A stretch of DNA of 43,233 bases. Source: a virus. Taxonomy: Duplodnaviria; Heunggongvirae; Uroviricota; Caudoviricetes. Under the pieces are notes generated by a model, which saw only the letters and a program-made list of their open reading frames with translations, did not search any database and had not been told where the DNA came from. Shown here piece by piece: positions 6,611-41,298 of the stretch; the stretch's first letter is position 1, and every line of letters begins with the position of its first letter. The translations under genes were made by a program, and so were the position numbers. Location of the stretch: the IMG/VR virus record IMGVR_UViG_2516143027_000009; one strand, written 5' to 3'.

Positions 6611-6625
6611 TTACCTTTCAGGTAA
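6611..6625. promoter_or_regulatory. Operator-like palindrome TTACC-TTTCA-GGTAA (copy 1)
   Basis: Same 5-5-5 palindrome as in the OR/OL regions; lies between the tailspike start and the 6702 gene. Confidence 0.5.
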
Positions 6626-6662: not shown

Positions 6663-6682
6663 TACTGTATAAATATACAGTT
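6663..6682. promoter_or_regulatory. LexA (SOS) box TACTGTATAAATATACAGTT
   Basis: Perfect CTGT-N8-ACAG with AT-rich spacer, about 20 bp upstream of the RBS and ATG of the 6702 gene. Confidence 0.7.
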
Positions 6683-6981: not shown

Positions 6982-7710
6982 CTATCGTTTCGCTTTGTGC
7001 TCGTCCCAGCACGTTTTGCACCATGCCATTAAGCCGTCCGCATTTTGATTATTAGGGTAAAAGCTGGTCCGTTTTCTGCGGACATTACAAATTGGGCACC
7101 ACTTCATATGGCGTGTATTCTTTGGGCCATCGAGACACCTTGCACACCACTTAGTCAATCCATCTGGATTTTTTGACGATTTCCGGAATTTGTCATATGG
7201 AAGGTTTATTCTGCATCGCAAACACTGCTTGCGGCCACTTGAAACTCTGTTAGCTGATTCTTCTTTTGGCGGCGATACAGAAGGTATTCTTGCTGGCTCT
7301 GATACTGCCTGAGGTGCTTTTTTAGATGACTGAGACGATATGTCATCACCAGGGAATCTTCCATGATATGCCGGACGCGTTGACACTCCAGGTGGAAGCT
7401 CAGCTGTAAACGGCTTTGGCTGAATCAGTTGCCTCTCTTTTGCTAACTCCTGCTGTTTATAATATGTCTGGATTACCGCACTATCATAAGCAGGAGGTAC
7501 GGAAATATCAGGCGCGTTACCTCCAGTTTTTTGAAAATGAGTAGATGTGTGTTCTATCACCTGTGTACGACTAATCGTTACCTCCCCATCTTCGGTCTTT
7601 ATCGTTTTGTTCTGATTAACGACCGTACGATCAGAGATCTTAGTCTTGTTCTGGTTGATAACGTAAATAATCACCGCAACCACACCAACAACTATCCAGA
7701 AAACTTCCAT
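6982..7710 (-). CDS. Membrane-anchored protein with Pro-rich linker and tandem CxxC zinc-ribbon repeats
   Basis: N-terminal TM helix; two repeats C-x2-C...DGL..WC-x2-C; operator copy in its promoter region. Confidence 0.5.
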   Translation of the reverse strand: MEVFWIVVGVVAVIIYVINQNKTKISDRTVVNQNKTIKTEDGEVTISRTQVIEHTSTHFQKTGGNAPDISVPPAYDSAVIQTYYKQQELAKERQLIQPKPFTAELPPGVSTRPAYHGRFPGDDISSQSSKKAPQAVSEPARIPSVSPPKEESANRVSSGRKQCLRCRINLPYDKFRKSSKNPDGLTKWCARCLDGPKNTRHMKWCPICNVRRKRTSFYPNNQNADGLMAWCKTCWDEHKAKR

Positions 7711-7730: not shown

Positions 7731-7745
7731 TTACCTTAAAGGTAA
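7731..7745. promoter_or_regulatory. Operator-like palindrome TTACC-TTAAA-GGTAA (copy 2)
   Basis: Sequence match to the operator consensus; divergent region between the 6982..7710 and 8108 genes. Confidence 0.5.
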
Positions 7746-7823
7746 TATCTTGCTTTCAGGTGATCAAGCGTTAAACGCAATCAACCAAATACGGTTGATT
7801 TTAATATTTCTTCGCGTTTATCA

Positions 7824-7838
7824 TTACCTTTGCGGTAA
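7824..7838. promoter_or_regulatory. Operator-like palindrome TTACC-TTTGC-GGTAA (copy 3)
   Basis: Sequence match to the operator consensus; upstream of the long leader of the 8108 gene. Confidence 0.5.
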
Positions 7839-7929
7839 ATTTACATCGCACTCCTCTTGTGCCATAGTAATCGGGCACTGGCAAAATCCAGTGCCGGGAT
7901 TGGCGTCCCGGGTTACTAAGTGGCGCATA

Positions 7930-7951
7930 CCACGCCAGACGTGGTTTTTTT
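7930..7951 (+). terminator. Intrinsic terminator inside the 5' leader of the BRO-domain antirepressor gene
   Basis: Hairpin CCACG-CCAGA-CGTGG followed by T7; about 150 nt upstream of the 8108 start codon. Confidence 0.45.
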
Positions 7952-8107
7952 ATGCGTTAAGCACAGCTATATCCGAATTATGGTGGGCTGGGCAGGGGTC
8001 CGAAAGGACGCCGGTACCACTTAGGCCGGTACGCCAACCTTGTCCAGTTCACCACCAGTAATTGGCGTTGCGGTGGTGATTAAAATCACTAAGTGGAGAT
8101 AACCACC

Positions 8108-8818
8108 ATGGCTAATGCTCAAACTTCCATCTTCAAATTTGAATCTGTTAACCCTATCCGTTCCATCATTATCGATGGCCAACCATGGTTTGTAGCCCAA
8201 GACGTTTGTAGTGCGCTGCGTATCCAAAACGTCACCCAAGCACTTGAAAAACTGGATGATGATGAAAGGTCTATGTTCAACATAGGGCATGAACATCGTG
8301 CAATTTTTGACAGCCGAGTAAAAGAGATCAACATCATCTCCGAGTCAGGCCTCTACACACTGATCCTCCGCTGCCGCGACGCAGTGACACCAGGCACTAT
8401 CCCCTACCGCTTTCGTAAATGGGTTACAGGTGAGGTTCTTCCTCAGATCCGCCGCACCGGAAGTTACATTAAAAACTCGCTCCCGCAGGAAGAACGCATA
8501 AAGATGGTTGCCGACCAGGTAGCCAACGCCACGGCGTCAGCAGTAATGCAGGCGATGAAGATAGAGAACAAAACCTACAGTGCCCCACTGAAGCCCGGCT
8601 ACCGTAGCCTGATTCATTCGCCGTCTGGTGTTCTCGGCCTGACGGAGAACTCACTGCTGATGAATCTGCTGAACCAGTTACAGGAAGACGGGCACGACGT
8701 ATCGGGCGCGGCGGCGGAACTGACCACCATGTTCTGCTACATCGTCGGTGTGAGCAAATGCCTGCGTGATATCCAGACCCACGCGGAGTACATCAACGAC
8801 AAGGCAGGGTTCTTCTGA
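8108..8818 (+). CDS. Antirepressor-like protein, N-terminal BRO-N domain fused to the shared C-terminal module
   Basis: N-terminal region typical of the BRO-N family (IFKFE...IDGQPWFVAQDVCSAL); RBS AAGTGGAG before ATG 8108; C-terminal 80 aa near-identical to the 9930 and 41299 products. Confidence 0.7.
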   Translation: MANAQTSIFKFESVNPIRSIIIDGQPWFVAQDVCSALRIQNVTQALEKLDDDERSMFNIGHEHRAIFDSRVKEINIISESGLYTLILRCRDAVTPGTIPYRFRKWVTGEVLPQIRRTGSYIKNSLPQEERIKMVADQVANATASAVMQAMKIENKTYSAPLKPGYRSLIHSPSGVLGLTENSLLMNLLNQLQEDGHDVSGAAAELTTMFCYIVGVSKCLRDIQTHAEYINDKAGFF

Positions 8819-8889: not shown

Positions 8890-8904
8890 TTACCTCAAGG
8901 GTAA
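8890..8904. promoter_or_regulatory. Operator-like palindrome TTACC-TCAAG-GGTAA (copy 4)
   Basis: Sequence match; about 60 bp upstream of the 8964 gene. Confidence 0.5.
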
Positions 8905-8963: not shown

Positions 8964-9596
8964 ATGAGAACAAATACAACAAGAAAAGCGATGCCATACA
9001 TTATCCCAGAAGCAGATTTCGATAGAAAACTGAACATGTCTGAGAAGAACACTAGTCACACCGAAAGCTACTTAGCGAAAGGTGTGGTTGATTTCGTTCT
9101 TCCGGGATTCACAACACCTTATGGTTATCGCCTTGTAAAATCTTGTAATGGCGATCATTACAGAATGATTACTACCAGCGATACTCCAGAAACGGTGTAT
9201 GCGGTTAAGTTAATCTTTCGGGAAGATATCGTCGAAGCCAAAAGAACATGTACGCAGATCATGGTATGGCGTACGCCTAATGTTATTCATGACCGTGCTG
9301 TTCATGGTTTGCCTCAGATTTTTTTTCAGTTCTTCCTAGAGCAATATGCGATCGTTGTATCTGATGAGCAACAAACAATCGATGGGAGAAGATTCTGGGA
9401 AAGAATGATTTCTTGGGCTATAAACACCCCGGGATATAATGTATACGTTTCAGATGGCTCTGAAGAAGATAGACCTCTTAGCTTCATGACATCATGGGAT
9501 GATTTCTATAGCCAGTGGGCTGATTTCTGTTGGGGCAGTGATAAAGATGTGCATACCCACAGACTACTGGTTATAAGCAAAGATAAACTGCATTAA
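8964..9596 (+). CDS. Hypothetical protein (accessory gene, no recognisable motif)
   Basis: Strong RBS GGGAGGA before ATG; 210 aa; lower GC than neighbours; own terminator; lies between the inverted repeat copies A and B. Confidence 0.6.
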   Translation: MRTNTTRKAMPYIIPEADFDRKLNMSEKNTSHTESYLAKGVVDFVLPGFTTPYGYRLVKSCNGDHYRMITTSDTPETVYAVKLIFREDIVEAKRTCTQIMVWRTPNVIHDRAVHGLPQIFFQFFLEQYAIVVSDEQQTIDGRRFWERMISWAINTPGYNVYVSDGSEEDRPLSFMTSWDDFYSQWADFCWGSDKDVHTHRLLVISKDKLH

Positions 9597-9905: not shown

Positions 9906-10160
9906 GCACGTCCCTGTGCCGCCGTTCTGTCAGAAGAACCCTGCCTTGTCGTTGATGTATTCCGCGTGCGTCTGGATATCACGCAGGCATTTGCTCACAC
10001 CAACGATGTAGCAGAACATGGTGGTCAGCTCCGCCGCCGCGCCCGATACATCGTGCCCGTCTTCCTGTAACTGGTTCAGCAGATTCATCAGCAGTGAGTT
10101 CTCCGTCAGGCCGAGAACACCCGACGGCGAATGAATCAGACTGCGGTAGCCTGGCTTCAA
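9906..10160 (-). repeat. Copy B (inverted) of the ~260-bp repeat
   Basis: Reverse complement matches copies A and C, including the post-stop segment. Confidence 0.8.
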
Positions 10161-10868
10161 TGGATAACCATAACATTTTGTCTGTGTTTTAATTGCCTCA
10201 CGAAGCGCATCTAACATCTTGACTGCCACTTCATCATTCTCTGATGCAGATCCAGCAGGGAGATACTCCCCTTCAAGCGGAACCCGAGCAACAAGAGACA
10301 ACGCTTCGGCAAATTGATCTTCACCAATTTCTTTGTACGAACAGCCAAAATGAGATTTCAGTGACGACCACATGGTGATCATCGCCTTAGCCTGTTTTTC
10401 TTTTGGCAGAGACTGACCGCGACTCATGACGAGTTGTTTAATGGCTTCCTGCTGTTCAGTTGTTATTTTACCCGGCAACGCCTTTTTAGCTTTGCGTGGG
10501 TTAACCACATGGCCTTTAGTCCAGTACTCGTAGAGCACATCGTCACACTCTTCCTGATACTGGATTACCTTGTCGCGGATTTCAGGGCGGACTTTGTTAG
10601 GGCTGATGCTGTTCAACCAAGCTGCCAATTTTCGTAAAGCCATACAAATCATGGCTTGCACCCCACCGGCAGAAGGTATGGTGATTTCCACCATACCCTT
10701 CGAGAAGCGTTGAGAAATCTTCTTATGTTGAGATTTCCAGTCTAGCCCCATTCCCTCAACGATAGGTTTCATTGGGGTATACGGTTCGCCGTTGTGATTG
10801 ACAACATAAAGCTCTGCGCCGTGGAATGGCACGTTGATAGTAGATACTGCTGTTGCTATACTCGTCAT
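9930..10868 (-). CDS. ant: Antirepressor Ant-like protein (P22 Ant N-terminal-like domain plus shared C-terminal module)
   Basis: N-terminal FHGAELYVVNHNGEPYTPMKPIVEGMGLDWKSQ resembles the P22 antirepressor N-domain (from memory); located downstream of an Arc-like gene with a divergent Mnt-like gene, as in P22 immI. Confidence 0.65.
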   Translation of the reverse strand: MTSIATAVSTINVPFHGAELYVVNHNGEPYTPMKPIVEGMGLDWKSQHKKISQRFSKGMVEITIPSAGGVQAMICMALRKLAAWLNSISPNKVRPEIRDKVIQYQEECDDVLYEYWTKGHVVNPRKAKKALPGKITTEQQEAIKQLVMSRGQSLPKEKQAKAMITMWSSLKSHFGCSYKEIGEDQFAEALSLVARVPLEGEYLPAGSASENDEVAVKMLDALREAIKTQTKCYGYPLKPGYRSLIHSPSGVLGLTENSLLMNLLNQLQEDGHDVSGAAAELTTMFCYIVGVSKCLRDIQTHAEYINDKAGFF

Positions 10869-10942
10869 GTCGTTAATTCCTATACGTAGTTTTACGATAC
10901 TGAAGCCCTGACGGTCTGGCCACCGTGGGGCTTCGCTGTTTT
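10869..10942 (+). ncRNA. Candidate sar-like antisense RNA (antisense to the ant RBS and arc 3' end)
   Basis: Plus-strand promoter TTGATA-17 bp-TATACT at 10834..10862 inside the ant 5' end; hairpin 10902..10934 followed by a T-rich tract gives a predicted transcript of about 70 nt. Confidence 0.4.
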
Positions 10943-11108
10943 ATGCCACGCTATTCTTCTCACCAGTGAGTCCATACACTTTCCTCAGCTGATAGATAAT
11001 CTCTGTATTGAACTTTCGGCATTCTTTTTCGCCATTTCTTTCAATAGCTAACTTCACATCGTCCGGAAAACGAACTCGTCGTTGACACATCTCTTTTGCT
11101 TTTTGCAT
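10941..11108 (-). CDS. arc: Arc-like ribbon-helix-helix repressor
   Basis: 55 aa from ATG 11108 with RBS AAGGAG; motif RVRFPDDVKLAIERNGEKECRKFNTEIIYQL matches the Arc/Mnt RHH pattern. Confidence 0.65.
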   Translation of the reverse strand: MQKAKEMCQRRVRFPDDVKLAIERNGEKECRKFNTEIIYQLRKVYGLTGEKNSVA

Positions 11109-11228
11109 TTCATATCTCCTTAGCCCCACCGTGGGGCAAAATAATTGTCACACCGTGCGTCATTGATGTCAAGCACACGGTGAGGCATACTTCAATCATT
11201 GCAAGTAACTCAATATTTGGTGAAGAAC

Positions 11229-11660
11229 ATGAGCAGAGAAGATCCACAACTAAGGATCAGACTTCCCGTCGAAGTAAAAGAAAAAATAGAAATTTCTGCA
11301 AAAGCCAATAAGCGATCAATGAACGCTGAAATAGTACAACGTCTTGACACCAGCTTTCTGAAAGATATTCATGAAGATGACGTAATTTCTGCTTATGAAG
11401 CAAAAATCATTGCAAACAATGCACGACATGAAATATCAAATATTATTTTCAAAAGAACCTTTAATGAAATTAATAAGAAAATAACACTTGGACATACAAG
11501 TTTTTATATAAACCTTAATGACCTTGAACTGGAATCACTTGCAGATAATGATTACCAGATCATCTTTGAAAAAACATTTAATAGGCTCAATGAACTAGGT
11601 TACATCATCTGTGAAAACTCATGGGATGCAGATGGTTTTGGAATTGAAATACCTGAATAG
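11229..11660 (+). CDS. mnt: Mnt-like ribbon-helix-helix repressor with a C-terminal extension
   Basis: N-terminus MSREDPQLRIRLPVEVKEKIEISAKANKRSMNAEIVQRL closely parallels P22 Mnt; divergent from arc-ant; AT-rich. Confidence 0.65.
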   Translation: MSREDPQLRIRLPVEVKEKIEISAKANKRSMNAEIVQRLDTSFLKDIHEDDVISAYEAKIIANNARHEISNIIFKRTFNEINKKITLGHTSFYINLNDLELESLADNDYQIIFEKTFNRLNELGYIICENSWDADGFGIEIPE

Positions 11661-15339: not shown

Positions 15340-18056
15340 TATTTAGATCCCCACGAAAAGTAATCTTTAAATTTGTCCATACGTTCGTTATGCAGGCGCT
15401 GATACTGCTCATCCAGAGCGCGATGCTTGTCTTTGAAGTTTCGTATAGCCTGTCCACGCATAATTTCTTCCTGCTCGTACTGCTCCCGTTCCTGCTGCAT
15501 TTTCTTATAAGGTTCCCAATCTTCTAGTGATGGTTCCCAACGCATAGGACGCCCATGTTTGTTATAAAACGGCTGGACCCGATCGATGCCATTTTCATCC
15601 TTAGTTCTTACCATAATGGCGTAATCACCATTACGAGGTGTTAACACGTCAGGGGTTATGAATAATTCTCCATTAATACGACTCTCAGGGGTTTTTGTCT
15701 CAACTACAGGAGCATTACCTGACGTGATCCCAAGCAACGTCGGACTGGTTGTTATAATCTCTTTGCGCTCACCGTACATCAGCCGTTCTTTTTCAGCTTT
15801 CCACTGCGCCGCCTGCCAGCCTGACGGCCCATATTGATAAAGCGCCTCCGGTGCATATTTCATAAACTGCGCTTCTCCGTTAACCTCGCTGATACTCCAG
15901 GTGCGGGCTATCTGCTGGTTGGTCATTTGCTTCGCTACGTCAGCGTTACCACCAGCAACGCGGTAGTTAATGTCATACAGCGTCTGATAGTCATTACGGA
16001 ATCTAGCTGCTTCCGGCGTCTGGTCATCCGCAGACGGATCCCAACGGAACCACTGCGCCATATTGCTGACAGCAGAATTCATCGCCTTGCTGCGATTATT
16101 TTTGTACTCTTTTGAACTCTGCGTTGATGCCAATTGAGCTTTAAGAGCATCGGTCTGGTTGTACGTCAGGTTCTGCGCCTGCTCGATAGCCGCATCAGCA
16201 GACATGCCAGAATCTGTTAGTTGCTTAACAGTCAGATAAAAACCCTGCATATCCTTCGGCATATTTCCAATAGATGCATTGTCTGTTTCATATAACCGAC
16301 TAAACAAATTCGCTGCATTTTTAACCACTTCCTGATTGCTGGATCTGGATACTGCTGAAAGCTGCGTGATGACCTGCGAAGGCATGATGCCAGTCTGAGC
16401 CACAAGCCGAACAACCCCATCATGAGTGGAGGCATCATTAATACGAAAGTTCTGCGCCATTTCTGTGTAATCAGCAGCTTTCTGCATTGATTTGTTGCTT
16501 GGGTCTAATTTTTCACCTATTGTCAGCGCCTCATTGAATCTGCGTGAATCACGTTGCGCCTGAATTGCTTCATTTGATCGCTGAAGCAATGCAGACAATT
16601 TTCCGTAAGCATCGAGTTTTAACGCATAGTGAGGATCGTTAACCTCAGGCTTCACTTTCTGCATTTCTTCTTGCTGCTGAGAAGGAGGTAAATACTGAAT
16701 TGCCTGGAATATTCTCGCGTTATCAATCGCTATATCCAGTTGATTGATTATTTTATCTGCATTTTTTCCATACCCCCTGATGATAGTCTCCTGAGCCGGT
16801 ATATAATCTGGAACCTCACCGTTATATAGCTGGGCCATGGTGTTATTAATAGCTGGCTCAAGCTGTTCTAATATTAACTTCCTTTGCTTTTCTATCTGAC
16901 TATTAGCAAGGTTATCTATTTGATAAATAGTCAGCGGATCCATTCCAGTTTTATTTTTTCTATATCGGGAAAGCCACCCTTGTGTTTCTGATGGAAGATT
17001 TCGGATAAATTCTTCTTCTGATATTTCACCTTTACGTGGATCACCGACTTTGGCGATCAGTTTATCCACGTTACCCATCCCCCAGTTATATGCTGCTCCG
17101 GTCAATATTTCGGAGCCGTACTTACCATACAGTTGATTTACATAGTCACTGGCGAGCATTTCATGCTGTTGTTCGTCCGTAGGGTTGTATTTAACGCCAC
17201 GCTTGGCCGCCAGTTCTTTCCCTGTGCCCGGCATTAACTGGTATTTCCCCTGGGCTCTCTCTCCAGAAGATGTTATCGGTCCTTCAAGAAGACTACCATC
17301 AGGATTAAAATGTCGATCACCTGATTCAACAAGGCGTATGGCACGCATGTCCATGCCTCCAGAATCATTTTTCTGAAACAGACCATTTAGCCATCCTTCT
17401 GGATTGGCAGCGGCATAATTCTTCGCCCGCATTTCTGTGGCACGGCGATCATCACTTTCTATTTCTTCCAGAATGCGTTCTTGTGACCATCCCCTGGCAG
17501 CTCCATATCTAGCAATGGCTACCATTCTGGAATTTCTGGCTAAAGTGGCAGTTTGCGGGTCATTCCAGGCATCCGCTTCATTTTGTATCCATAATTTTCT
17601 CGTTGCCTGATATTGCTCATCTTCATAGGCATTTGTCTGCCCTATCTCATGTCTGAGAACTCCAGTACTGAACTGAATTTTCTGTGTTCTGGCTTGTTGC
17701 AAAAACATATTTCTTGCTGCTTCATCAGTCAATGAAGCAGCTATTTCTTCCACATCCTGATCAAATCCAGATATGTACTCTTGCCCCTTACCAATCGCAT
17801 TTTTGCCTTGTTGTGCATAAAAACCGGTTTGAGGGTTATAAAGACGTTCATTGCTGCGCTGATTAAGCTGAAGGATGGCATCCTGAGACAATGCAACATT
17901 CGCTTTCTGCCTGGCTTCACCATATGCCACCGCATACTGATCTGCGACATTCGCCAGCACCTGACCTGCTTGAGGAACATCGAAGATCTGAAAACCACCG
18001 GTTTGCACACCACGACTTTGCACCTGGCGTCCGGATGTAGTAGGAACAACAGGCAT
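15339..18056 (-). CDS. Internal virion protein with lytic transglycosylase (SLT-like) domain
   Basis: 905 aa; segment ESGDRHFNPDGS...GERAQGKYQLMPGTGKE resembles the SLT catalytic region; position equivalent to T7 gp15/gp16. Confidence 0.65.
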   Translation of the reverse strand: MPVVPTTSGRQVQSRGVQTGGFQIFDVPQAGQVLANVADQYAVAYGEARQKANVALSQDAILQLNQRSNERLYNPQTGFYAQQGKNAIGKGQEYISGFDQDVEEIAASLTDEAARNMFLQQARTQKIQFSTGVLRHEIGQTNAYEDEQYQATRKLWIQNEADAWNDPQTATLARNSRMVAIARYGAARGWSQERILEEIESDDRRATEMRAKNYAAANPEGWLNGLFQKNDSGGMDMRAIRLVESGDRHFNPDGSLLEGPITSSGERAQGKYQLMPGTGKELAAKRGVKYNPTDEQQHEMLASDYVNQLYGKYGSEILTGAAYNWGMGNVDKLIAKVGDPRKGEISEEEFIRNLPSETQGWLSRYRKNKTGMDPLTIYQIDNLANSQIEKQRKLILEQLEPAINNTMAQLYNGEVPDYIPAQETIIRGYGKNADKIINQLDIAIDNARIFQAIQYLPPSQQQEEMQKVKPEVNDPHYALKLDAYGKLSALLQRSNEAIQAQRDSRRFNEALTIGEKLDPSNKSMQKAADYTEMAQNFRINDASTHDGVVRLVAQTGIMPSQVITQLSAVSRSSNQEVVKNAANLFSRLYETDNASIGNMPKDMQGFYLTVKQLTDSGMSADAAIEQAQNLTYNQTDALKAQLASTQSSKEYKNNRSKAMNSAVSNMAQWFRWDPSADDQTPEAARFRNDYQTLYDINYRVAGGNADVAKQMTNQQIARTWSISEVNGEAQFMKYAPEALYQYGPSGWQAAQWKAEKERLMYGERKEIITTSPTLLGITSGNAPVVETKTPESRINGELFITPDVLTPRNGDYAIMVRTKDENGIDRVQPFYNKHGRPMRWEPSLEDWEPYKKMQQEREQYEQEEIMRGQAIRNFKDKHRALDEQYQRLHNERMDKFKDYFSWGSK

Positions 18057-19095: not shown

Positions 19096-21566
19096 CAGAA
19101 TCCCCCAACAGTAAGGCGAGGAATAACGGCAAGAACAGACAGCGGCAACGGATCAAGCTGACGGATTTTTACACGTCCGTTTTTGCCCCAGTTACTGTCC
19201 AGTTTCACTTCTACTTTTCCGGTAGCATCATCAACAGGATCATCGTAGAACTCGAATTCACGCTGTGGATATTCGTACCATTTACCGCCGGGCGTAGTCG
19301 CCCAGATGCCGCGACTGGCATTCACAACCAGAGTAACGGACGGGATCACCTGTTTTTTGTCCAGCAGCGTTTCCTGTCCGTTAATGTTGATATCCAGTGT
19401 TTCGAATTCAGCAGTTATTGGCAGGCCGATGTGCACAACAGCCCCAGGTGATTCCAGCGTGACGGCACCTCCGGAAACCACTTTCTGTGGTTCCACGTTC
19501 GCATCAGAGAGGATGTTTACGGTCTGGCCTTCAAGATGAGACAAGCCGCCAAATGTCCGGCGCGCCATCTGCCAGTTCGTGGTGGCCACATTCCTGAGGG
19601 ATGGCGGGACGTTCCTGTTAGCACGAACCACTACAGCGGTATTGCTGGTTACAGAAATAATGTCGCAACGTAATTCTTTTGACACCTCATCGCCAGTATC
19701 AGGATCAGTTCCGGTATAAGGGAACTGTAGTTGCGCGCCGACATCACTACTGGTGAAGTACGCACCACCAGAAACACTGATTGTATATTCCGCGCGGTAA
19801 TCCCATTCGCCAGAACCACCAGTGATGGTCATCGTTCTGTCAGACGTATTTCTTCCATCATAGCTAAGGCCAGAATCAACAAAGAAAGCATCTTCATCGC
19901 TGGTAAATAAACGGCTGGACAGTCGCTCGATGTATCTCACTGTTTGCCCGTTAACGGTTCGGTTAATGACGAAATACACCGCATCTTCATTGCCTTCGCT
20001 GATACTGCATGTGCTTTCATATTTTCCGGTACTGGACTGTGGTGCCCATGCAAAAACCTGTTGATCACGCAGATAGGTCATCACCAGTAATTTACCGTCA
20101 TCACGAATGCAGAAGGCGCTGGAGTAAGGGACAATAGAGAAGCACCAGTCAACAATGCTGTGCTTCTGAAAAAGATGATTGGCAAGGATAGTAAGGTCGT
20201 TCCCCTGATAGCCGTCAACATCGAATGAATAGGCCAGATCACGGACAACACTGCCTTTCTCCTGGACGAACAGAGCAATATTCGCCACGGCAATTGGTGG
20301 GACGTTGCTTGAGCCATTTGATCCCTGAGAGCTGAATGCAAATGATGATGGGGTTAACACTTTGTTCTGGTCGCCGGTGATGACGTACTCACCTCCGGAA
20401 GTCAGCGCCACCAGCGAACCAACATCAATCAGGTGGCGGATCTCATTAACCTGACGCCCGGCATAGGTGTAGATAATTCTATCGTCATCCTGCGTAGGAT
20501 TGCTTTTGCCAAAATCCTTATAATCCCCAGTACGGCTGGCCCAGATAGTCTGAGGGAACGCAGTCGATGCGGCGAAGTAAAGACGCTGTTGATAATAAAC
20601 AACAGTGCCAGGATAACCATTAACACTGTTCCAGGCATATTTAGCCCATTTATAGCTGGCATTATCCTCGCCAACGACCTGCGAAGGGATATAGGAAATC
20701 ACCTCAGCAGTTGCAGTAGTGCCATTTACAGCAGTTATACGGGCAATGCCAAAACCACTGTGCAGATACTCCCACTCAATGCCAGTATCATCATCACCGG
20801 AGCCTCCCCAGCCATCCCATGATGTGCCTTCTGTATGCGAAGGGCGCAAAGTGCCTGTTTTGCCTGCTGTAACGGCGCGATAGTAGTTACTGTCTGCACG
20901 GCGAATATCGCCAATCGACGTACTCTTACTGGTTTCCCATACCGGTACTGAATCCACTGCTGGCTGTTCCAGATAGAACAATTTGCCTACCTGCTCCGCG
21001 CCAAAAATAGAGGCGCTTGCCGTTAACGTAATTGTCCCGGTGCTGGCGCTGGCATAAACCGTCACTGACTCGTCAATATTGATATCTTCAAATGGCCCGT
21101 TCTTCGTTACCACATCAACCAGTTGCCAGTTGTCATGCGCATAGCGGCGCAACTCTTTCGGCGGGTATGCCGGATGAACCAGCGTAAGCACGTCTGCGCT
21201 TTGCGTGAATTTAATTCTGAACAGATCGGCTTCAGTATATGGCGTGGCAATTTCATAAATAACATTGCTGCTGTTCAGCACCAACGCACCATCTTTGATA
21301 ACGCGCATGTACTGGTGTCCGAACTCCAGAGCATAAGTCTGAACCGTCGAGAACTGGAACGGGATCAGGCGGCATTTCCGATTTGGGTATTTGGCGGCAC
21401 CGACAAAACGCGTACCAGGTCGACTCTCAACGCCGCCATACTGCCGCACGATAAAGTTATCGCACTTGCGCAATGCCACCTGGTACTTCGCCATGTCGAT
21501 ACGACCGTACAACGACGGTCCAATCTCACCACCGGCAAAGCTGGGCTGGATCCAACTGATAGCCAT
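19095..21566 (-). CDS. Tail tubular protein B (nozzle, T7 gp12-like)
   Basis: 823 aa; size and position match T7-like gp12 downstream of the gp11-like gene. Confidence 0.65.
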   Translation of the reverse strand: MAISWIQPSFAGGEIGPSLYGRIDMAKYQVALRKCDNFIVRQYGGVESRPGTRFVGAAKYPNRKCRLIPFQFSTVQTYALEFGHQYMRVIKDGALVLNSSNVIYEIATPYTEADLFRIKFTQSADVLTLVHPAYPPKELRRYAHDNWQLVDVVTKNGPFEDINIDESVTVYASASTGTITLTASASIFGAEQVGKLFYLEQPAVDSVPVWETSKSTSIGDIRRADSNYYRAVTAGKTGTLRPSHTEGTSWDGWGGSGDDDTGIEWEYLHSGFGIARITAVNGTTATAEVISYIPSQVVGEDNASYKWAKYAWNSVNGYPGTVVYYQQRLYFAASTAFPQTIWASRTGDYKDFGKSNPTQDDDRIIYTYAGRQVNEIRHLIDVGSLVALTSGGEYVITGDQNKVLTPSSFAFSSQGSNGSSNVPPIAVANIALFVQEKGSVVRDLAYSFDVDGYQGNDLTILANHLFQKHSIVDWCFSIVPYSSAFCIRDDGKLLVMTYLRDQQVFAWAPQSSTGKYESTCSISEGNEDAVYFVINRTVNGQTVRYIERLSSRLFTSDEDAFFVDSGLSYDGRNTSDRTMTITGGSGEWDYRAEYTISVSGGAYFTSSDVGAQLQFPYTGTDPDTGDEVSKELRCDIISVTSNTAVVVRANRNVPPSLRNVATTNWQMARRTFGGLSHLEGQTVNILSDANVEPQKVVSGGAVTLESPGAVVHIGLPITAEFETLDININGQETLLDKKQVIPSVTLVVNASRGIWATTPGGKWYEYPQREFEFYDDPVDDATGKVEVKLDSNWGKNGRVKIRQLDPLPLSVLAVIPRLTVGGF

Positions 21567-22171
21567 CAGGACAACCTCGCAATGGTAAACTCGTCAACCG
21601 GTGGCTGTGGTTCCTGTGATTCATTCTGGCTATGCGAGCCAGCACTAAGAATCACGCGATTGTACATATTGAGGGCAAACGTACCGAGGTCTGCATTCCC
21701 AGTCAGCGCCATGTTAATAGCTGCCGCAAGACGCCAGGCCAACGCCTCCATAAAAATGGCATCAAACATGTTCACATCTGTAACGCGAGAGACATACTTG
21801 AGCCATGCCTGAGGCTGGTCTGTGTAGATCAACTTTCCTGTTCCGTTGGTGTCTACACCTACTTCGTACTGAACGCGCATTGCTGCTGTTGGATTGCGTA
21901 CACCAGGAAGCATAATTTCAGTAATGCGCAGACAATCGGACGGGTACTGATACGCATATTCCCAGTCAGGCGGTGGATTGCTCGTATCTGCAAGCGCCAC
22001 GCGTTTGGTAGCAAAGTTCCAGTCAAAATCAGAAAGCACAGCATCACGGCAGGCCTCAAAGTGCAGCGAACATTCCCCCGCTTCCTTGCTGGCTTCCGTC
22101 AGGCTGTTAATGCTGCGGCTGTTGCCAATATTGGACAGCGCACGATTGCAGATCTCTACTACAGAGGCCAT
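21566..22171 (-). CDS. Tail tubular protein A or adaptor (T7 gp11-like)
   Basis: 201 aa; size and position match gp11-like adaptor. Confidence 0.55.
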   Translation of the reverse strand: MASVVEICNRALSNIGNSRSINSLTEASKEAGECSLHFEACRDAVLSDFDWNFATKRVALADTSNPPPDWEYAYQYPSDCLRITEIMLPGVRNPTAAMRVQYEVGVDTNGTGKLIYTDQPQAWLKYVSRVTDVNMFDAIFMEALAWRLAAAINMALTGNADLGTFALNMYNRVILSAGSHSQNESQEPQPPVDEFTIARLS

Positions 22172-23011: not shown

Positions 23012-23062
23012 CTTCTTTCTCCATTAGTGGGTCTGTTACGACCCACAGGTTAATAACAGGCG

Positions 23063-27045: not shown

Positions 27046-27060
27046 TTACCTTTCAGGTAA
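27046..27060. promoter_or_regulatory. Operator-like palindrome TTACC-TTTCA-GGTAA (copy 5), next to a TTGACA hexamer
   Basis: Identical to copy 1; TTGACA at 27023..27028; lies between the portal operon start and the structured region and tRNA. Confidence 0.5.
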
Positions 27061-27382: not shown

Positions 27383-27459
27383 GTGGCATTAGCTCAGTTG
27401 GACAGAGCAACCGCCTTCTAAGCGGTTGGTCGCAGGTTCGAATCCTGCATGCCACGCCA
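27383..27459 (+). tRNA. tRNA-Arg (anticodon UCU), phage-encoded
   Basis: Cloverleaf by eye: acceptor GTGGCAT/ATGCCAC, D-arm GCTC-AGTTGGAC-AGAGC, anticodon stem ACCGC/GCGGT with loop CTTCTAA, T-arm GCAGG-TTCGAAT-CCTGC, discriminator G and encoded CCA. Confidence 0.85.
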
Positions 27460-27546: not shown

Positions 27547-27619
27547 AGCAGGACGCCATTGCGATGACTTCATGCTGTAAACCAGTACAGCCACGGAAGG
27601 CATAACTCATTGCTTCCAG

Positions 27620-27656: not shown

Positions 27657-28079
27657 ATGAAGACAATTGATATGTTGGCTAAGTATCTAAATGAATGGCC
27701 ATTAAAATATTCTCGTATCGTTCAGGCTGAAGACTGCATTTTTTATGGCGTTTTTGCTGGTAATGAAATGCATTACGAAGTAATTCAGAGTGAGGGACTG
27801 GCCGGGTTAACTCTTAGCGAAGACCATGGTACTAGCGTTACGTACCATGACTGGATTTCAGCGCAGAAAACTGAAATGGAAAAAGGCAATGTGTTTGATA
27901 TTTCTCGCGCTGTATACGCCAAAGAAAAAAGTGATGATGATTACATGCGCGAAAACTTATACAACATGAAGTTACAATGCCTGGCTGAAGTGCTTAGTAA
28001 AAGATCTTTACTTGATGTGGTTGGTGCTGAGCAGGACGCCAAGGCAATCAACGCCGCATTCGATAAAATAACCTTCTAA
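27657..28079 (+). CDS. Hypothetical acidic protein encoded opposite to the late operon (accessory gene)
   Basis: RBS AAGGTGAG; 140 aa; low GC; own terminator; plus strand while the flanking portal and terL are on the minus strand. Confidence 0.6.
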   Translation: MKTIDMLAKYLNEWPLKYSRIVQAEDCIFYGVFAGNEMHYEVIQSEGLAGLTLSEDHGTSVTYHDWISAQKTEMEKGNVFDISRAVYAKEKSDDDYMRENLYNMKLQCLAEVLSKRSLLDVVGAEQDAKAINAAFDKITF

Positions 28080-29598: not shown

Positions 29599-30191
29599 TG
29601 ATTGCCATCCTGACGTTCTTTCAGTCTCTTCCTGGCTGCCGCTATGCGATCAGCAATTGTCACATTCACATTAACATCCAGGCGTTCTTTGAATGCATTG
29701 ACATCGACGTGCTTACCAATCAGTTCGAGGTTCTTCACCTTGTCAGGCCATTTAATTTTTTTGAGGATTGTCTCTATCGAATCCTCGTCCATGTTCATGA
29801 TGGTCGATGACAGATCAAAGCCGCTAAGCGTAGTGCGCCAGATTTTCGGCCACTCGCGGATTGGCTTAAGGCTCCCATCGTCGTTGAGGATATCAATCAC
29901 GTCCATCTGGTCGATCTCCACCAGGCGCATGAGAACGTAATCAGCACTGACGCGCATTCGTTTGTTGCGCTCCTCCATCAACTCGGCAATCCGTTTCTGA
30001 ATGCGTTCATCGCGCATCATGACACTGGCTTTAACTGCCGCTGTATTTGGGGAGAATCCTGCATTAATCGCAGCCTGAGTCTGATTTTCAGGCGTTTTGA
30101 TGTATGACTGGCAATAAGCCTCCTGCATTGCTGTTAGTGGCTTAAATTGCGTTGATTTGCGTTTATAGGTTTTAGGTTCAGCAGGCATCAT
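29595..30191 (-). CDS. terS: Terminase small subunit
   Basis: Region AMQEAYCQSYIKTPENQTQAAINAGFSPNTAAVKAS resembles the small terminase DNA-binding domain; start moved to internal Met pair with GGTGG RBS (the ORF extends to 30269). Confidence 0.65.
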   Translation of the reverse strand: MMPAEPKTYKRKSTQFKPLTAMQEAYCQSYIKTPENQTQAAINAGFSPNTAAVKASVMMRDERIQKRIAELMEERNKRMRVSADYVLMRLVEIDQMDVIDILNDDGSLKPIREWPKIWRTTLSGFDLSSTIMNMDEDSIETILKKIKWPDKVKNLELIGKHVDVNAFKERLDVNVNVTIADRIAAARKRLKERQDGNQ

Positions 30192-30196
30192 AACCA

Positions 30197-30230
30197 CCAT
30201 GGTAATAGTTACCGTTGTGGTAATAGTACC
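30197..30230. repeat. Tandem GGTAATAGT(T)ACC repeats directly upstream of terS
   Basis: CCATGGTAATAGTTACC-GTTGT-GGTAATAGTACCATG; half-sites related to the operator but in the opposite arrangement. Confidence 0.5.
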
Positions 30231-33026: not shown

Positions 33027-33103
33027 TTACCTCTGAGGTAATTAAAAACCACATAAGACACGAAATCAATAGAGTTTAGAATATTTTGTTACCCAACAGG
33101 TAA
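33027..33103. promoter_or_regulatory. Two operator-like palindromes (TTACC-TCTGA-GGTAA and TTACC-CAACA-GGTAA; copies 6 and 7)
   Basis: Sites at 33027..33041 and 33089..33103 between the P-like gene stop and the 32676..33023 gene start. Confidence 0.5.
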
Positions 33104-33140
33104 CTATCAAGACATAAAAAAATGCGCTATCGCGCTGGTA

Positions 33141-34990: not shown

Positions 34991-35005
34991 TTACCTTTGA
35001 GGTAC
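34991..35005. promoter_or_regulatory. Operator-like variant TTACC-TTTGA-GGTAC (copy 8)
   Basis: One mismatch in the right half-site; between the Cro-like gene and the next gene. Confidence 0.35.
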
Positions 35006-35039: not shown

Positions 35040-35060
35040 ACAGAGGGTTGTAGCTGGATA

Positions 35061-35291
35061 TCATGAGTAGAAGAAGTATGCCAGTTCTGCTTTTGAGCGC
35101 AGCCATTGTCTTGTTTTACAGGCTTTAAAAAGCCCATTCATCAATACCTTACCTGGCATTTTGCGCTTGCCTGTTAAGTGAGTCTGGATATAGTGACTCG
35201 TCGTTCCGGCTTCCTGTGCGAAGGCTTCACGCTCATCCGGAGTAAGTGCAAGCCAGTGCTTTTTGAAATCGAAATGTCCGTTATCGCTCAT
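35061..35291 (-). CDS. Cro-like HTH DNA-binding protein
   Basis: 76 aa; HTH-like segment EAFAQEAGTTSHYIQTHLTGKR; divergent from the repressor across a three-operator region; followed by a terminator and the O/P-like genes. Confidence 0.55.
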   Translation of the reverse strand: MSDNGHFDFKKHWLALTPDEREAFAQEAGTTSHYIQTHLTGKRKMPGKVLMNGLFKACKTRQWLRSKAELAYFFYS

Positions 35292-35327
35292 AGCTATTGC
35301 CTGATATTTATTTCAGATAATAAATAT

Positions 35328-35390
35328 TCACCCATAAGGTAACAAAAATCAAGGATGGTTACCTATGAGGTGCATTTACCTGTTGGGTAA
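35328..35390. promoter_or_regulatory. OR-like region with three operator palindromes between Cro-like and repressor genes
   Basis: TCACC-CATAA-GGTAA (35328..35342), TTACC-TATGA-GGTGC (35359..35373), TTACC-TGTTG-GGTAA (35376..35390). Confidence 0.65.
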
Positions 35391-35445
35391 TATTGCTTTA
35401 AATTGAATCATCTACTGATTCATATATGAGGCGATTTTCCAGAAA

Positions 35446-36030
35446 ATGAAAAGTATCCAGGACGTCCGCAGGCAAAATCTCAACGACTTGATCGACCGTG
35501 AATTCAATGGTGTTCAGACGCGGATGGCAGAAAAACTTGGAACTCAGGCAAATCTGGTAAACCGCTGGGCTCTTGGCAAGAAGGTTATCGGCGACCAGGT
35601 TGCGCGAAAAATTGAAGCTGCCGCCAATAAACCCCGTAACTGGCTTGATATCGATCGCTCGCTTTCTCAGGAAGGTTTTCAGCCTGTCGGCCCAAGCGAC
35701 ATTGGTCAGCTGGCGGCTCACAACCTGGAACGCTGGATGAGCGAAAGCCGCGACCTTTCAACACAGGGAAAACTTCACCGCGCATCCGGCGTCGCCCAGG
35801 TGACAATCAGCCGCCTGTTAAACAATGAGGTCAGCGTTTCCATTTCCACCCTGGAGAATGTTGCATCCGCATTCGGGCGTCACGGATATGAACTACTGAT
35901 TCACCCGCACGACCCTGCGACTATCAACTATGACCGCTCACGCTACGCATTGTTACCCGAAACCGAGAAAGCAAAGATCGAAAGTTACATTGAATTTGTC
36001 ATCAACCAGAACGAAAAAAGCAAACAATAA
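35446..36030 (+). CDS. Immunity repressor (CI-like), dual HTH, no S24 peptidase domain
   Basis: N-terminal HTH (TQANLVNRWALGKKVIGDQVARKIEAAANKPRNWL) and a second HTH-like segment (ASGVAQVTISRLLNNEVSVSISTLENVASAFG); no Ser/Lys autocleavage motifs; flanked by operator clusters. Confidence 0.65.
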   Translation: MKSIQDVRRQNLNDLIDREFNGVQTRMAEKLGTQANLVNRWALGKKVIGDQVARKIEAAANKPRNWLDIDRSLSQEGFQPVGPSDIGQLAAHNLERWMSESRDLSTQGKLHRASGVAQVTISRLLNNEVSVSISTLENVASAFGRHGYELLIHPHDPATINYDRSRYALLPETEKAKIESYIEFVINQNEKSKQ

Positions 36031-36050
36031 AACTATATTTTTCAGTAAGT

Positions 36051-36075
36051 AAGCCGCCTCATGGCGGCTTTTTTA
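36051..36075 (+). terminator. Rho-independent terminator after the repressor gene
   Basis: Hairpin AAGCCGCC-TCAT-GGCGGCTT followed by T7. Confidence 0.65.
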
Positions 36076-36087
36076 TTGCCATCAAGA

Positions 36088-36164
36088 TTACCTTATGGGT
36101 AATTTTTTTAACTCATATCTATTGACATCAAACCAAATACGCATAATCATTACCTCAACGGTAA
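36088..36164. promoter_or_regulatory. OL/PL-like region: two operator palindromes flanking a TTGACA promoter
   Basis: TTACC-TTATG-GGTAA (36088..36102); TTGACA at 36122..36127 with CATAAT about 15 bp downstream; TTACC-TCAAC-GGTAA (36150..36164). Confidence 0.6.
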
Positions 36165-36182
36165 CAAGCCGAGGTAACAAGT

Positions 36183-41135: not shown

Positions 41136-41298
41136 GCCTGCAATCTGGCATAGTCACATCCGTACAAAGGTCGGGTGGAGAGGCGTAATACAACACCCGA
41201 AAGGGGAATATGCCCGGAGCTACTGTTTGTGCTCTAGTTGACACCCGATCACCAGCTACTAACTGGTTTTCGTAACTAAAAACAAACAGGAGGTCATC

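Follow-up and report, generated by a model that had tools for sequence, protein, structure and literature searches.

Within the window, by which we refer to the entire analyzed stretch of 43,233 nucleotides from a record of a virus of the class Caudoviricetes (IMGVR_UViG_2516143027_000009), the gene that we term rep is encoded on the plus strand by an open reading frame with an ATG start, whose extent was confirmed exactly as described in a previous reading of the sequence alone (Table 1). The gene diverges from a cro-like gene that is syntenic in the phages phiV10, SPC32H and TL-2011b and beyond which genes for DnaT-domain and lambda-P-like replication proteins are located. On its other side, it is followed by a terminator and by an early-left-type operon containing exonuclease and RecT genes. 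With the cro-like gene transcribed divergently and an early-left-type operon at the opposite end, rep thus occupies the position of cI, and the reading frame, the divergent gene and the flanking operons bear out the proposal of the sequence-only reading that a repressor of 194 residues resides at this site. A scan for the promoter consensus revealed no convincing sigma-70 promoter of rep.

The identity of the protein became apparent in phmmer searches of the PDB, where residues 1-190 align to residues 2-197 of the Rep protein of Salmonella phage SPC32H (5D50_A, E=3.5e-42) and where the fragment of the same protein encompassing residues 92-198 is detected as well (5D4Z_A, E=3.6e-20). Both proteins share about 43% of identical residues over their full length, corresponding to 53% in the N-terminal domain (NTD), 34% in the middle module and 43% in the C-terminal tail. 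When using the predicted model of Rep as query in Foldseek, the best 11 matches were all chains of 5D50 or 5D4Z, with a TM score of 0.79 to the 92-198 fragment. Proteins with 99-100% sequence identity are found at the same locus in phiV10 (gp40, 99.5%), vB_EcoP_ZX5 (in the following ZX5; ORF21) and TL-2011b (gp10), and gp38 of epsilon15, annotated as repressor, is located at a matching position and shares 43% identity across 99% of its length. In total, the family of Rep relatives comprises 86 homologous cluster representatives of 106-235 residues. Functional data is available for ZX5 ORF21, whose reported sequence is identical to phiV10 gp40 and whose overexpression abolished free phage and lowered the mRNA of endolysin and holin by 99.97-99.99% (PMC9782041). 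The homology to SPC32H Rep and this block of lytic growth both support the earlier assignment of the protein as immunity repressor. We thus consider it very probable that Rep is the immunity repressor of a phiV10/epsilon15-like, TL-2011b-like (Uetakevirus) E. coli prophage and that it works like SPC32H Rep, as a non-cleavable protein that is switched by Ant and LexA. The features common to both systems encompass homology and architecture of the repressor, an Ant protein preceded by a LexA box, the cI position and shared palindromes.

Table 1. Features of the immunity region, the antirepressor genes and the candidate operators in the window.
Feature	Position	Strand	Evidence or context
Rep-type palindrome TTACCTTTCAGGTAA	6611..6625	.	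tailspike/ant divergent intergenic region
LexA box CTGTATAAATATACAG, perfect	6665..6680	.	22 bp upstream of ant ATG
ant, small antirepressor, 85 aa	6702..6959	+	PDB 5D50_E 'Anti-repressor protein' E=4.1e-47; GGAG ribosome-binding site
Two exact palindromes, 7731-7745 and 7824-7838	7731..7838	.	intergenic, upstream of Bro-N module
isrK (7875-7951) and C4 antisense RNA (7976-8059), leader of Bro-N/Ant gene	7875..8059	+	Rfam gathering-score matches, 67.7 and 66 bits
241-aa Bro-N protein with Ant-like C-terminal domain	8093..8818	+	Pfam Bro-N; 38% identical to small Ant
Exact palindrome	8890..8904	.	upstream of 210-aa ORF 8964-9596
312-aa P22_AR_N protein with Ant-like C-terminal domain common to Bro-N/Ant protein	9930..10868	-	Pfam P22_AR_N E=5.9e-45; alignment
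P22 immI-like control region	10870..11660	.	sar RNA, Arc-like ORF, Mnt/Arc-like ORF
sar RNA	10870..10937	+	Rfam 44.8 bits vs cutoff 43
Arc-like 62-aa ORF	10941..11129	-	ORF in immI-like region
Mnt/Arc-like 153-aa ORF	11199..11660	+	ORF in immI-like region
Exact palindrome	27046..27060	.	upstream of head-gene operon
Neighboring palindromes, one with a single mismatch and one exact	30191..30223	.	5' end of small-terminase gene
Palindrome pair 62 bp apart	33027..33103	.	downstream of P-like gene
One-mismatch palindrome	34991..35005	.	after terminator of cro-like gene
cro-like 76-aa gene, divergent from rep	35061..35291	-	phrog_35 'transcriptional repressor' E=5.6e-13
P_R-like promoter TTGTTA-17-TATTAT, for cro-like and replication genes	35317..35345	-	consensus scan only
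O_R-like candidate operator cluster: TCACCCATAAGGTAA (35328), TTACCTATGAGGTGC (35359), TTACCTGTTGGGTAA (35376)	35328..35390	.	palindrome scan
rep, immunity repressor, SPC32H Rep family	35446..36030	+	ORF, 5D50_A homology, phiV10 gp40/ZX5 ORF21 identity, Foldseek
Rep aa 1-72, N-terminal HTH, putative DNA-binding domain	35446..35661	+	AF2 helices, conservation, SPC32H Rep DBD N-terminal
Rep aa 89-150, HTH_3-like five-helix module, putative middle dimerisation domain (MDD)	35710..35895	+	Pfam, AF2, 5D4Z coverage
Rep aa 151-194, C-terminal tail, putative tetramerisation and Ant-binding domain (CAD/TetDloop)	35896..36027	+	aligns to 5D50_A/5D4Z C-terminus
Intrinsic terminator after rep	36051..36070	+	terminator scan; phiV10 annotates terminator at matching place
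O_L-like pair, 36088-36102 and 36150-36164, 62 bp apart	36088..36164	+	palindrome scan
P_L-like promoter TTGACA-17-AATCAT, flanked by O_L-like pair	36122..36150	+	predicted

Small and large antirepressor genes

The multiple antirepressor genes and the LexA box, with which the repressor had been proposed to act, were all located in the window (Table 1). The small Ant protein is 86% identical to its counterpart from SPC32H, the Ant chain of 5D50. The LexA box preceding its gene is conserved in SPC32H, phiV10, TL-2011b and Tyrion and, as we read it, overlaps with a TATAAA element; a promoter scan provided no acceptable sigma-70 promoter of ant. In the Klebsiella phage BUCT711, ATGT naturally takes the place of CTGT in the box. 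The nearby palindrome at 6611 is kept in SPC32H, Tyrion and the Klebsiella phage and contains a single mismatch in phiV10 and TL-2011b. Another match to CTGT-N8-ACAG at position 23033 was rejected as LexA box, as it is placed inside a long reading frame of the structural-gene region and probably occurs by chance. A further match at 27575 is intergenic.

Proteins containing an Ant domain were found only in phage records that also carry a member of the Rep family. Scans of viral contigs for relatives of both proteins retrieved only copies of 99-100% identity, with rep and ant residing on shared contigs, and due to this lack of diversity our comparison was instead based on four phages with existing annotation (TL-2011b, SPC32H, Klebsiella BUCT711 and Tyrion). 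In NCBIfam, Ant did not match any entry and Rep showed only far-sub-threshold matches (RstR, HigA, TreR), with no model covering either protein. By analogy to SPC32H, where a LexA-controlled Ant is described as route of induction in the citing paper PMC7380047, it is most likely the small Ant that would switch Rep off. The regions of Rep that are expected to contact Ant are 34-43% identical to SPC32H Rep compared to 86% for Ant, and the conservation of their interface is therefore an assumption.

The prophage also encodes two larger proteins with Ant-like C-terminal domains. In the 241-residue Bro-N protein, the C-terminal 80 residues are identical to those of ZX5 ORF4, a tested anti-repressor. 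In the 312-residue P22_AR_N protein, Pfam found no P22 C-terminal domain; its gene adjoins the immI-like region, and the annotation of TL-2011b lists an 'Arc-like repressor' next to Ant. We infer that both fusions probably feed other signals into the Rep switch. With dedicated regulators accompanying both large genes, it is conceivable, albeit unlikely, that one of them, under the control of either C4/isrK or Mnt/Arc/sar, would act as dominant inducer of an antirepressor-controlled Rep and that induction would be largely independent of the SOS response. Such a scenario could account for the spontaneous induction of the ZX5 lysogen to 10^7 PFU/mL and for the about 1000-fold decrease of lysogens upon overexpression of ORF4 (PMC9782041). 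Conversely, conservation among the relatives from E. coli, Salmonella and Enterobacter is highest for the small Ant and its LexA box. The Salmonella phages lack the large fusions, as each of their records contains a single place with an Ant domain, and the switch described for SPC32H in the citing papers PMC9638917 and PMC7380047 is the small Ant. We thus favor the small LexA-controlled Ant as main inducer.

Domain architecture of Rep

In the AlphaFold (AF2) model of the Rep monomer, the N-terminal HTH is followed by a disordered linker, a module of five helices and a C-terminal helix. The helices of the NTD (residues 4-19, 24-31, 35-43 and 50-59) are predicted with pLDDT values of 85-91, and repressor families of PHROG match residues 1-76. 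In an alignment of four divergent Reps, 35 of the 72 columns of this domain, which carries a net charge of +5, are invariant, including the stretch N36-L-V-N-R-W41 of the recognition helix (residues 35-43). Similarly, among 49 sequences, 15 of 25 invariant columns fall within residues 1-50, the most conserved part of the protein. When submitted separately to Pfam, residues 1-79 remain below threshold (HTH_3, 16 bits, E=0.012; YdaS_toxin, 20.5 bits at a cutoff of 30). Based on the model and the PHROG matches, we nevertheless consider the N-terminal HTH to be real. HTH_3 matches two stretches of Rep and scores 38.5 bits for the whole protein (cutoff 23), which places it into the XRE/HTH_3 (Cro/C1-type) superfamily, with the main contribution originating from residues 106-147. 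Residues 80-154 alone exceed the cutoffs of HTH_3 (26.9 vs 23 bits) and HTH_26 (25.9 vs 22 bits). The predicted helices of this middle module span residues 83-151 and are covered by the crystallized 5D4Z fragment. The C-terminal module is weakly defined in the AF2 monomer (pLDDT 53-77), where the beta-strands described for the CAD of SPC32H Rep are not reproduced, and a Pfam search with residues 151-194 gave no match. An internal duplication as source of both HTH-like segments was dismissed after a BLASTP comparison of residues 1-75 with residues 86-194, which retrieved nothing at E≤100.

The presence of two HTH-like segments, as noted in the sequence-only reading, is thus confirmed by Pfam, AlphaFold and PHROG, whereas the second one is probably not a DNA-binding domain, as its counterpart in SPC32H Rep is a dimerisation domain. 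In the citing paper PMC9986798, the latter protein is described to consist of a DNA-binding domain (DBD) followed by the MDD and the CAD, with Ant being bound by the CAD. By analogy, the middle HTH_3-like segment of Rep is probably a dimerisation domain, and two HTH domains would not equal two DNA-binding domains. The alternative of a tandem-HTH repressor, where both modules bind DNA, or where the C-terminal one serves as DNA-binding domain as proposed in the ZX5 paper, appears improbable. It would be in line with the middle module passing the Pfam thresholds of HTH_3, HTH_26 and a LacI-type HTH, with the invariance of R123 in its third helix and with its description as TreR-like DNA-binding domain in the same study, which did not include an experiment on this point (PMC9782041). 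However, besides the N-terminal location of the DBD in SPC32H Rep, the fragment 92-198 of that protein was crystallized as oligomerisation and Ant-binding piece. In addition, among four Reps with a common operator sequence, the presumed recognition helix of the middle module contains 3 invariant positions out of 14 and no net charge, compared to 8 out of 14 and a charge of +3 for the equivalent helix of the NTD.

We regard it as very improbable that Rep would instead be another XRE-family regulator or an antitoxin of the HigA/VapI type, as suggested by the label 'plasmid maintenance system antidote protein VapI' of a 99.5%-identical gene in phage BP9 and by a weak NCBIfam match to HigA. Latter scores 18.7 bits, far below the cutoff of 47.7 (TIGR02607), the neighbors of rep are the cro-like gene and the terminator with the early-left operon instead of a toxin-like gene, the protein is homologous to a characterized phage repressor over its full length and no free phage is obtained when ORF21 of ZX5, its near-identical counterpart, is overexpressed (PMC9782041).

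As stated in the sequence-only reading, Rep lacks the Ser/Lys region of LexA-like repressors. Pfam searches for Peptidase_S24 (PF00717) found no match at E≤1 for the whole protein or at E≤10 for the separate modules, neither AG nor CG dipeptides, as contained in the linker of LexA and lambda cI-type proteins, are found anywhere in its 194 residues and the S24 domain is contained in none of the 86 cluster representatives. Without an S24 protease module, RecA* could not trigger self-cleavage, and Rep is thus most likely non-cleavable during the SOS response. A classical repressor of the lambda cI or LexA type, with RecA-stimulated autocleavage as its mode of inactivation, to which the cI position, the N-terminal HTH and one PHROG match to the generic 'transcriptional repressor' family phrog_4, which includes cI-like proteins, would conform, is on these sequence grounds effectively refuted, the more so as the C-terminal half of Rep aligns with and superposes on the helical 5D4Z fragment.

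Candidate operators and the proposed switch

In the whole window, the palindrome TTACC-N5-GGTAA is found at 11 exact sites compared to 0.03 expected, all of which are either intergenic or located at the extreme 5' end of the small-terminase gene. A genome-wide comparison covering TL-2011b, SPC32H and Klebsiella BUCT711 identified the motif at syntenic locations, including the pairs spaced by 62 bp. Overall, syntenic copies were observed in four relatives. In the O_R-like cluster, the candidate operator at 35328-35342 occupies the spacer of the P_R-like promoter. The three-site layout, with spacings of 17 and about 30 bp, is also present in SPC32H and its 17-bp pair in the Klebsiella phage. The O_L-like pair is conserved at a distance of 62/63 bp in TL-2011b, SPC32H and Klebsiella BUCT711, and the pair at 33027 is conserved in the same phages. 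The second site of this latter pair (33089-33103) lies within the spacer of a promoter-like TTGATA-16-CAAAAT (33110..33083, minus strand). The palindrome at 27046 has syntenic equivalents in SPC32H (3175) and the Klebsiella phage (34570), those of the small-terminase gene in SPC32H (12) and TL-2011b (11590/11608). It is from their position only that we assign these sites to Rep as opposed to the cro-like protein or to both.

In the proposed mechanism, which is modeled after SPC32H, the N-terminal HTH with its recognition helix around N36-W41 would read TTACC-N5-GGTAA, the middle HTH_3-like module would dimerise the protein and the C-terminal tail would join two dimers to a tetramer, which would thus contain two DNA-reading heads. 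Such tetramers may occupy operators that lie within or close to the P_R-like and the P_L-like promoter, as well as those of several other intergenic promoters, with some of the sites paired at a distance of 62 bp. Upon DNA damage, the inactivation of the host LexA would free the box at 6665-6680 and permit production of the 85-residue Ant, whose tetramer is predicted to bind the C-terminal domains of Rep and to split its tetramer into dimers with poor DNA binding, whereupon lytic transcription would begin. For SPC32H, the citing paper PMC9638917 describes Rep as tetramer whose DNA-binding pairs originate from different dimers and which is broken by the Ant tetramer.

A broader proposal, which we advance tentatively and hold to be possible rather than probable, combines three elements. 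Rep might act as genome-wide silencer with at least 11 operators at almost every transcription unit, where phased 62-bp pairs are bridged by the two heads of one tetramer. At the same time, three classical antirepressor circuits may converge on Rep by means of a portable Ant domain of 75-80 residues, namely the LexA box with the small Ant, a P1/Gifsy-type arrangement of isrK, C4 antisense RNA and the Bro-N fusion, and a P22 immI-type arrangement of Mnt, Arc, sar and the P22-Ant-N fusion. Finally, since conservation among Uetakeviruses of E. coli, Salmonella, Enterobacter and Klebsiella extends to the operator half-site, the recognition helix and Ant, there might be cross-immunity or cross-inducibility between these phages despite the 43% identity of their Reps.

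Occurrence and comparison with known systems

Among the 5,426 complete genomes of E. coli, 540 contain the immunity region, one of them being APEC O1, and phages of strains with the serotypes O157:H7 and O103:H25 carry rep as well. Linking these records predicts that in a tenth of sequenced E. coli, prophage induction would proceed by the SOS response via LexA and Ant instead of repressor cleavage. The Rep family, its missing protease domain and its induction by Ant and LexA are already known and published for SPC32H, and with the mechanism solved in that phage, our finding on Rep is correct but ordinary. It adds little by itself, as the annotation of the near-identical protein from E. coli dates back to phiV10, whose GenBank record already contains the label 'putative transcriptional repressor; two helix-turn-helix motifs', and as experiments on this protein were performed in ZX5. 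The finding is of practical use for annotation, as RefSeq names the protein just 'helix-turn-helix domain-containing protein' and the sole experimental paper on an E. coli ortholog assigned DNA binding to a domain that is probably the wrong one (PMC9782041). The palindrome also offers a candidate operator sequence for the engineering of phiV10-type phages.

The closest described system is Rep/Ant of SPC32H, which resembles the prophage in the homology and three-module layout of the repressor, its genome position, the operators at syntenic sites and the small Ant that is located behind a LexA box and adjoins the tailspike gene. The two differ in the host, which is E. coli in the present case, and in the two extra Ant-domain fusion genes, which are absent in SPC32H. 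The repressor gp38 of epsilon15 stems from a Salmonella phage and is said to have been identified genetically as the major repressor by Kropinski and colleagues in 2007. The proteins phiV10 gp40, ZX5 ORF21 and TL-2011b gp10 do not differ from Rep in any substantive way, but the study of ZX5 did not link ORF21 to SPC32H Rep, LexA or a small Ant and attributed DNA binding to the C-terminal HTH (PMC9782041).

The same logic of a non-cleavable repressor, with DNA damage sensed by a LexA-repressed antirepressor (Tum/Ant), is described for the Gifsy and Fels-2 repressors and for CI of coliphage 186 in PMC7380047. We detected no sequence relationship to these repressors or to Tum. The SPC32H-type Ant is reportedly a structurally distinct small protein, as attributed to work of Kim and Ryu in 2013. 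An N-terminal HTH DBD combined with a p53-like C-terminal tetramerisation domain (TetDloop) and with inactivation by an antirepressor-like partner is found in Rco of the Bacillus plasmid pLS20, and PMC9986798 states this likeness for SPC32H Rep. Rco does not contain a middle dimerisation domain, and its likeness is structural and would, in the present protein, concern the C-terminal tail, which is of low confidence in AF2. With lambda cI, P22 c2 and LexA, Rep shares the genome position, the N-terminal HTH, the divergent layout of P_R/P_RM type and clusters resembling O_L and O_R, whereas it differs from them by the absence of an S24 domain and cleavage site. In place of the oligomerisation mode of S24 repressors, Rep would, by analogy to SPC32H, employ an HTH-like dimerisation module and a short tetramerisation tail.

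Locus and standing of the repressor

The gene rep, which encodes the repressor protein Rep, occupies the cI position of a prophage that is phiV10/TL-2011b-like and of the epsilon15 type (genus Uetakevirus) from E. coli. The sequence-only reading had placed an open reading frame of 194 residues there, and its coordinates proved exact, with a cro-like gene running divergently. The cro-like gene is in turn followed by genes for a DnaT-domain initiator and for a loader of the lambda P type. On the 3' side of rep, a strong terminator precedes an operon of the early-left type that includes exonuclease and RecT genes. Identity of the immunity region to the phages HEMP4, ZX5, TL-2011b and phiV10 amounts to 98-99%, and the HEMP4 copy of Rep is 100% identical in sequence. 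At an identity of at least 95%, positions 35040-36180 are found in 540 of 5,426 complete E. coli genomes, nearly always as a single, chromosomal copy. RefSeq names the repressor generically as 'helix-turn-helix domain-containing protein', and among NCBIfam models none covers Rep or the small antirepressor Ant. An annotation as antitoxin in one phage record is contradicted by score and genomic context. The observation of two helix-turn-helix (HTH) segments is not new, as the phiV10 GenBank record already lists a 'putative transcriptional repressor; two helix-turn-helix motifs (PF01381)'.

Experiments on ORF21 of the E. coli phage vB_EcoP_ZX5, stated to be identical in sequence to phiV10 gp40 (PMC9782041), bear on Rep because gp40 and Rep share 99.5% of their residues. 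Overexpression of ORF21 reduced free phage to zero and lowered the transcripts of endolysin by 99.99% and of holin by 99.97%; overexpression of ORF4, a Bro-N 'anti-repressor', decreased lysogens about 1000-fold (PMC9782041). Together with the cI position and full-length homology to Rep of the Salmonella temperate phage SPC32H, this block of free phage supports the interpretation as immunity repressor. Since Rep is 99-100% identical to phage proteins that have been published, annotated and in part tested, and the mechanism has been described for a homologue, we regard it as already known, and the main gain as an improved annotation of this region.

Features of the proposed repressor-antirepressor circuit in the window
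Feature	Position	Strand	Remarks
Exact palindromes TTACC-N5-GGTAA	6611, 7731, 7824, 8890, 27046, 30209, 33027, 33089, 35376, 36088, 36150		15 bp each
LexA box	6665-6680		perfect, CTGTATAAATATACAG
ant, 85 aa	6702-6959	+	22 bases downstream of LexA box; GGAG ribosome-binding site
isrK RNA	7875-7951	+	Rfam, 67.7 bits; leader of Bro-N/Ant gene
C4 antisense RNA	7976-8059	+	Rfam, 66 bits; tandem with isrK
Bro-N protein, 241 aa	8093-8818	+	Ant-like C-terminal domain
P22_AR_N protein, 312 aa	9930-10868	-	Ant-like C-terminal domain
sar antisense RNA match	within 10870-11660		Rfam, 44.8 bits, just over cutoff of 43
Arc-like ORF, 62 aa	10941-11129	-	
Mnt/Arc-like ORF, 153 aa	11199-11660	divergent	
cro-like gene, 76 aa	35061-35291	-	divergent from rep; phrog_35, E=5.6e-13
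rep, 194 aa	35446-36030	+	ATG start

Domain organization of Rep

The Pfam profile HTH_3 matches Rep in two stretches. Scored alone, residues 80-154 exceed the curated cutoffs (HTH_3 26.9 bits versus 23; HTH_26 25.9 versus 22), residues 1-79 stay below them (HTH_3 16 bits; YdaS_toxin 20.5 versus 30), and the last 48 residues, scored separately, have no Pfam match. The structure predicted by AlphaFold from an alignment of 49 sequences of the family (mean pLDDT 78.6) contains an HTH domain composed of helices 4-19, 24-31, 35-43 and 50-59, a disordered linker (74-83), a five-helix module (83-151) and a long terminal helix (172-193). In a sequence search of the PDB, residues 1-190 align over the full length with residues 2-197 of chain A of 5D50, termed 'Repressor' (E=3.5e-42), and a second match is 5D4Z, which holds 107 residues from the C-terminal part of that protein; the entry titles describe a Rep-Ant complex and a Rep fragment, respectively, both from SPC32H. 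The first eleven Foldseek matches of the model in the PDB are all chains of these two entries, with a TM-score of 0.79 on the 92-198 fragment, followed by generic XRE-HTH proteins (SinR, DdrO, Stl, HigA). This homology supports an organization in three modules with a single HTH that would bind DNA; of the two HTH domains proposed initially, the two profile-matching stretches stand, but a second DNA-binding unit is improbable. A recent duplication as their origin is excluded because we found no pairwise similarity between the two segments.

As to which segment reads DNA, the ZX5 study assigned this role, without a test, to a C-terminal 'TreR-like' HTH (PMC9782041). Comparative data point instead to the N-terminal domain, as does PMC9986798. 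Among four Reps with a common operator, 35 of its 72 columns are invariant, including the unbroken stretch N36-L-V-N-R-W41 in the second helix of the predicted HTH, whereas the corresponding helix in the middle module retains 3 of 14 residues. In an alignment of 49 sequences, 15 of the 25 invariant columns fall within residues 1-50, and the net charge is +5 in the N-terminal domain and 0 in the middle module.

The claimed lack of an S24 domain was confirmed. Rep shows no match to Peptidase_S24 at any threshold used, its 194 residues contain no Ala-Gly or Cys-Gly dipeptide, and S24 is absent from all 86 cluster representatives (106-235 residues) retrieved from 5.8 billion proteins, whose Pfam content is solely of the HTH type and whose named members belong to Enterobacterales (Escherichia, Citrobacter, Lelliottia, Pluralibacter, Raoultella, Serratia, Superficieibacter). 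With both defining features lacking, domain and cleavage dipeptide, Rep does not belong to the autocleaving S24 repressors. SPC32H Rep is reported not to be cleaved upon SOS induction.

Candidate operators and antirepressors

The palindrome TTACC-N5-GGTAA, first spotted by eye near rep, occurs in 11 exact copies compared to 0.03 expected from a first-order Markov simulation, and all 11 are either intergenic or at the extreme 5' end of the small-terminase gene. Three copies, one exact and two with one and two mismatches, fill the region between rep and cro, where one occupies the spacer of a predicted P_R-like promoter. Just past the rep terminator, a near-consensus promoter (TTGACA-17-AATCAT) is bracketed by two exact copies at a distance of 62 bp, and a second 62-bp pair, with one member within a promoter spacer, follows the P-like gene. 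One further copy precedes the ant LexA box by 40 bp, and others lie ahead of the Bro-N module, ahead of the head-gene operon and at the small-terminase start. TL-2011b, SPC32H and the Klebsiella phage BUCT711 carry the palindrome at the corresponding syntenic places, both 62/63-bp pairs included, although Rep is only 43% identical in SPC32H and 44% in BUCT711. From position and synteny we infer that Rep would bind these sites; their pairing fits a tetramer with two DNA-reading heads, and their number, placing and synteny suggest that a single repressor may shut down nearly all transcription units. One copy also lies 21 bp upstream of a 242-residue ORF (6982-7710, minus strand) between ant and the Bro-N module, which has a hydrophobic N-terminal segment, a Cys-rich C-terminus and a weak Stc1-domain match (E=3.8e-4).

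The multiple antirepressor genes and the LexA box, both noted earlier, are present. The box precedes ant, whose product matches the Ant chain of 5D50 (E=4.1e-47; 86% identity to SPC32H Ant). The upstream region can be aligned across the window, SPC32H, phiV10 and TL-2011b with the box kept in all, and the box is also intact in Enterobacter phage Tyrion. A single base change in the LexA-box consensus of ant is reported to render the sister phage SPC32N constitutively lytic. In Tyrion, the ant homologue is annotated too short (gp21, 54 residues, about 21440-21700, minus strand), the full ORF starting with an ATG behind the box and a GGAG ribosome-binding site. In the sewage isolate vB_KpnP_BUCT711, the box at 17010-17035 is ATGTATATATATACAG, in which one C of the first half-site is replaced by A. 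A second CTGT-N8-ACAG match in the window (CTGTAAACCAGTACAG, 27575-27590), intergenic between tRNA-Arg(tct) (27383-27459) and a 140-residue ORF (27657-28079, plus strand), could mark another LexA-regulated gene or be due to chance.

Over their final 75-80 residues, the Bro-N and P22_AR_N proteins do not differ from one another and share 38-39% identity with small Ant, with 30 positions invariant across four aligned sequences; the last 80 residues of ZX5 ORF4 are identical to those of the Bro-N protein. This Ant-like domain occurs in 34 phage-collection records, all from the genera and phage set carrying the Rep family. The three genes come with three different control modules of classical type: the LexA box for small Ant, isrK/C4 for the Bro-N fusion, with a terminator (7929-7945) inside the isrK match, and sar/Arc/Mnt for the P22-type fusion. 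An Rfam match to sRNA-Xcc1 (41169-41258, plus strand, 64.8 bits) lies near the integrase end. The three-gene set is the most interesting feature nearby, though beyond the repressor itself, and we only tentatively propose, as possible rather than probable, a genome-wide phased operator set combined with a three-input Ant-domain circuit.

Comparison with known systems

The isrK/C4 tandem resembles the RNA control modules of P1 immI and Gifsy-1, and the cassette at 10870-11660 beside the 312-residue fusion is P22 immI-like. SPC32H Rep is described to switch between dimers and tetramers, with the dimer binding DNA weakly, the tetramer being the DNA-bound form and the N-terminal domains on one palindrome supplied by different dimers (PMC9638917). 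A second account describes an N-terminal DNA-binding domain, a middle dimerization domain (MDD) and a C-terminal, p53-like tetramerization domain (CAD, 'TetDloop'), which also binds Ant (PMC9986798). In such Salmonella prophages, SOS acts via LexA self-cleavage and antirepressor synthesis and not via repressor cleavage (PMC7380047). As in SPC32H, ant in the window is divergent from the tailspike gene. An SPC32H-type repressor, for which oligomerization, Ant binding and non-cleavage would follow by homology, is supported, and SPC32H Rep/Ant is the closest known system, which agrees with the window in protein sequence, module layout, antirepressor partner, LexA box, genomic position and operator palindromes.
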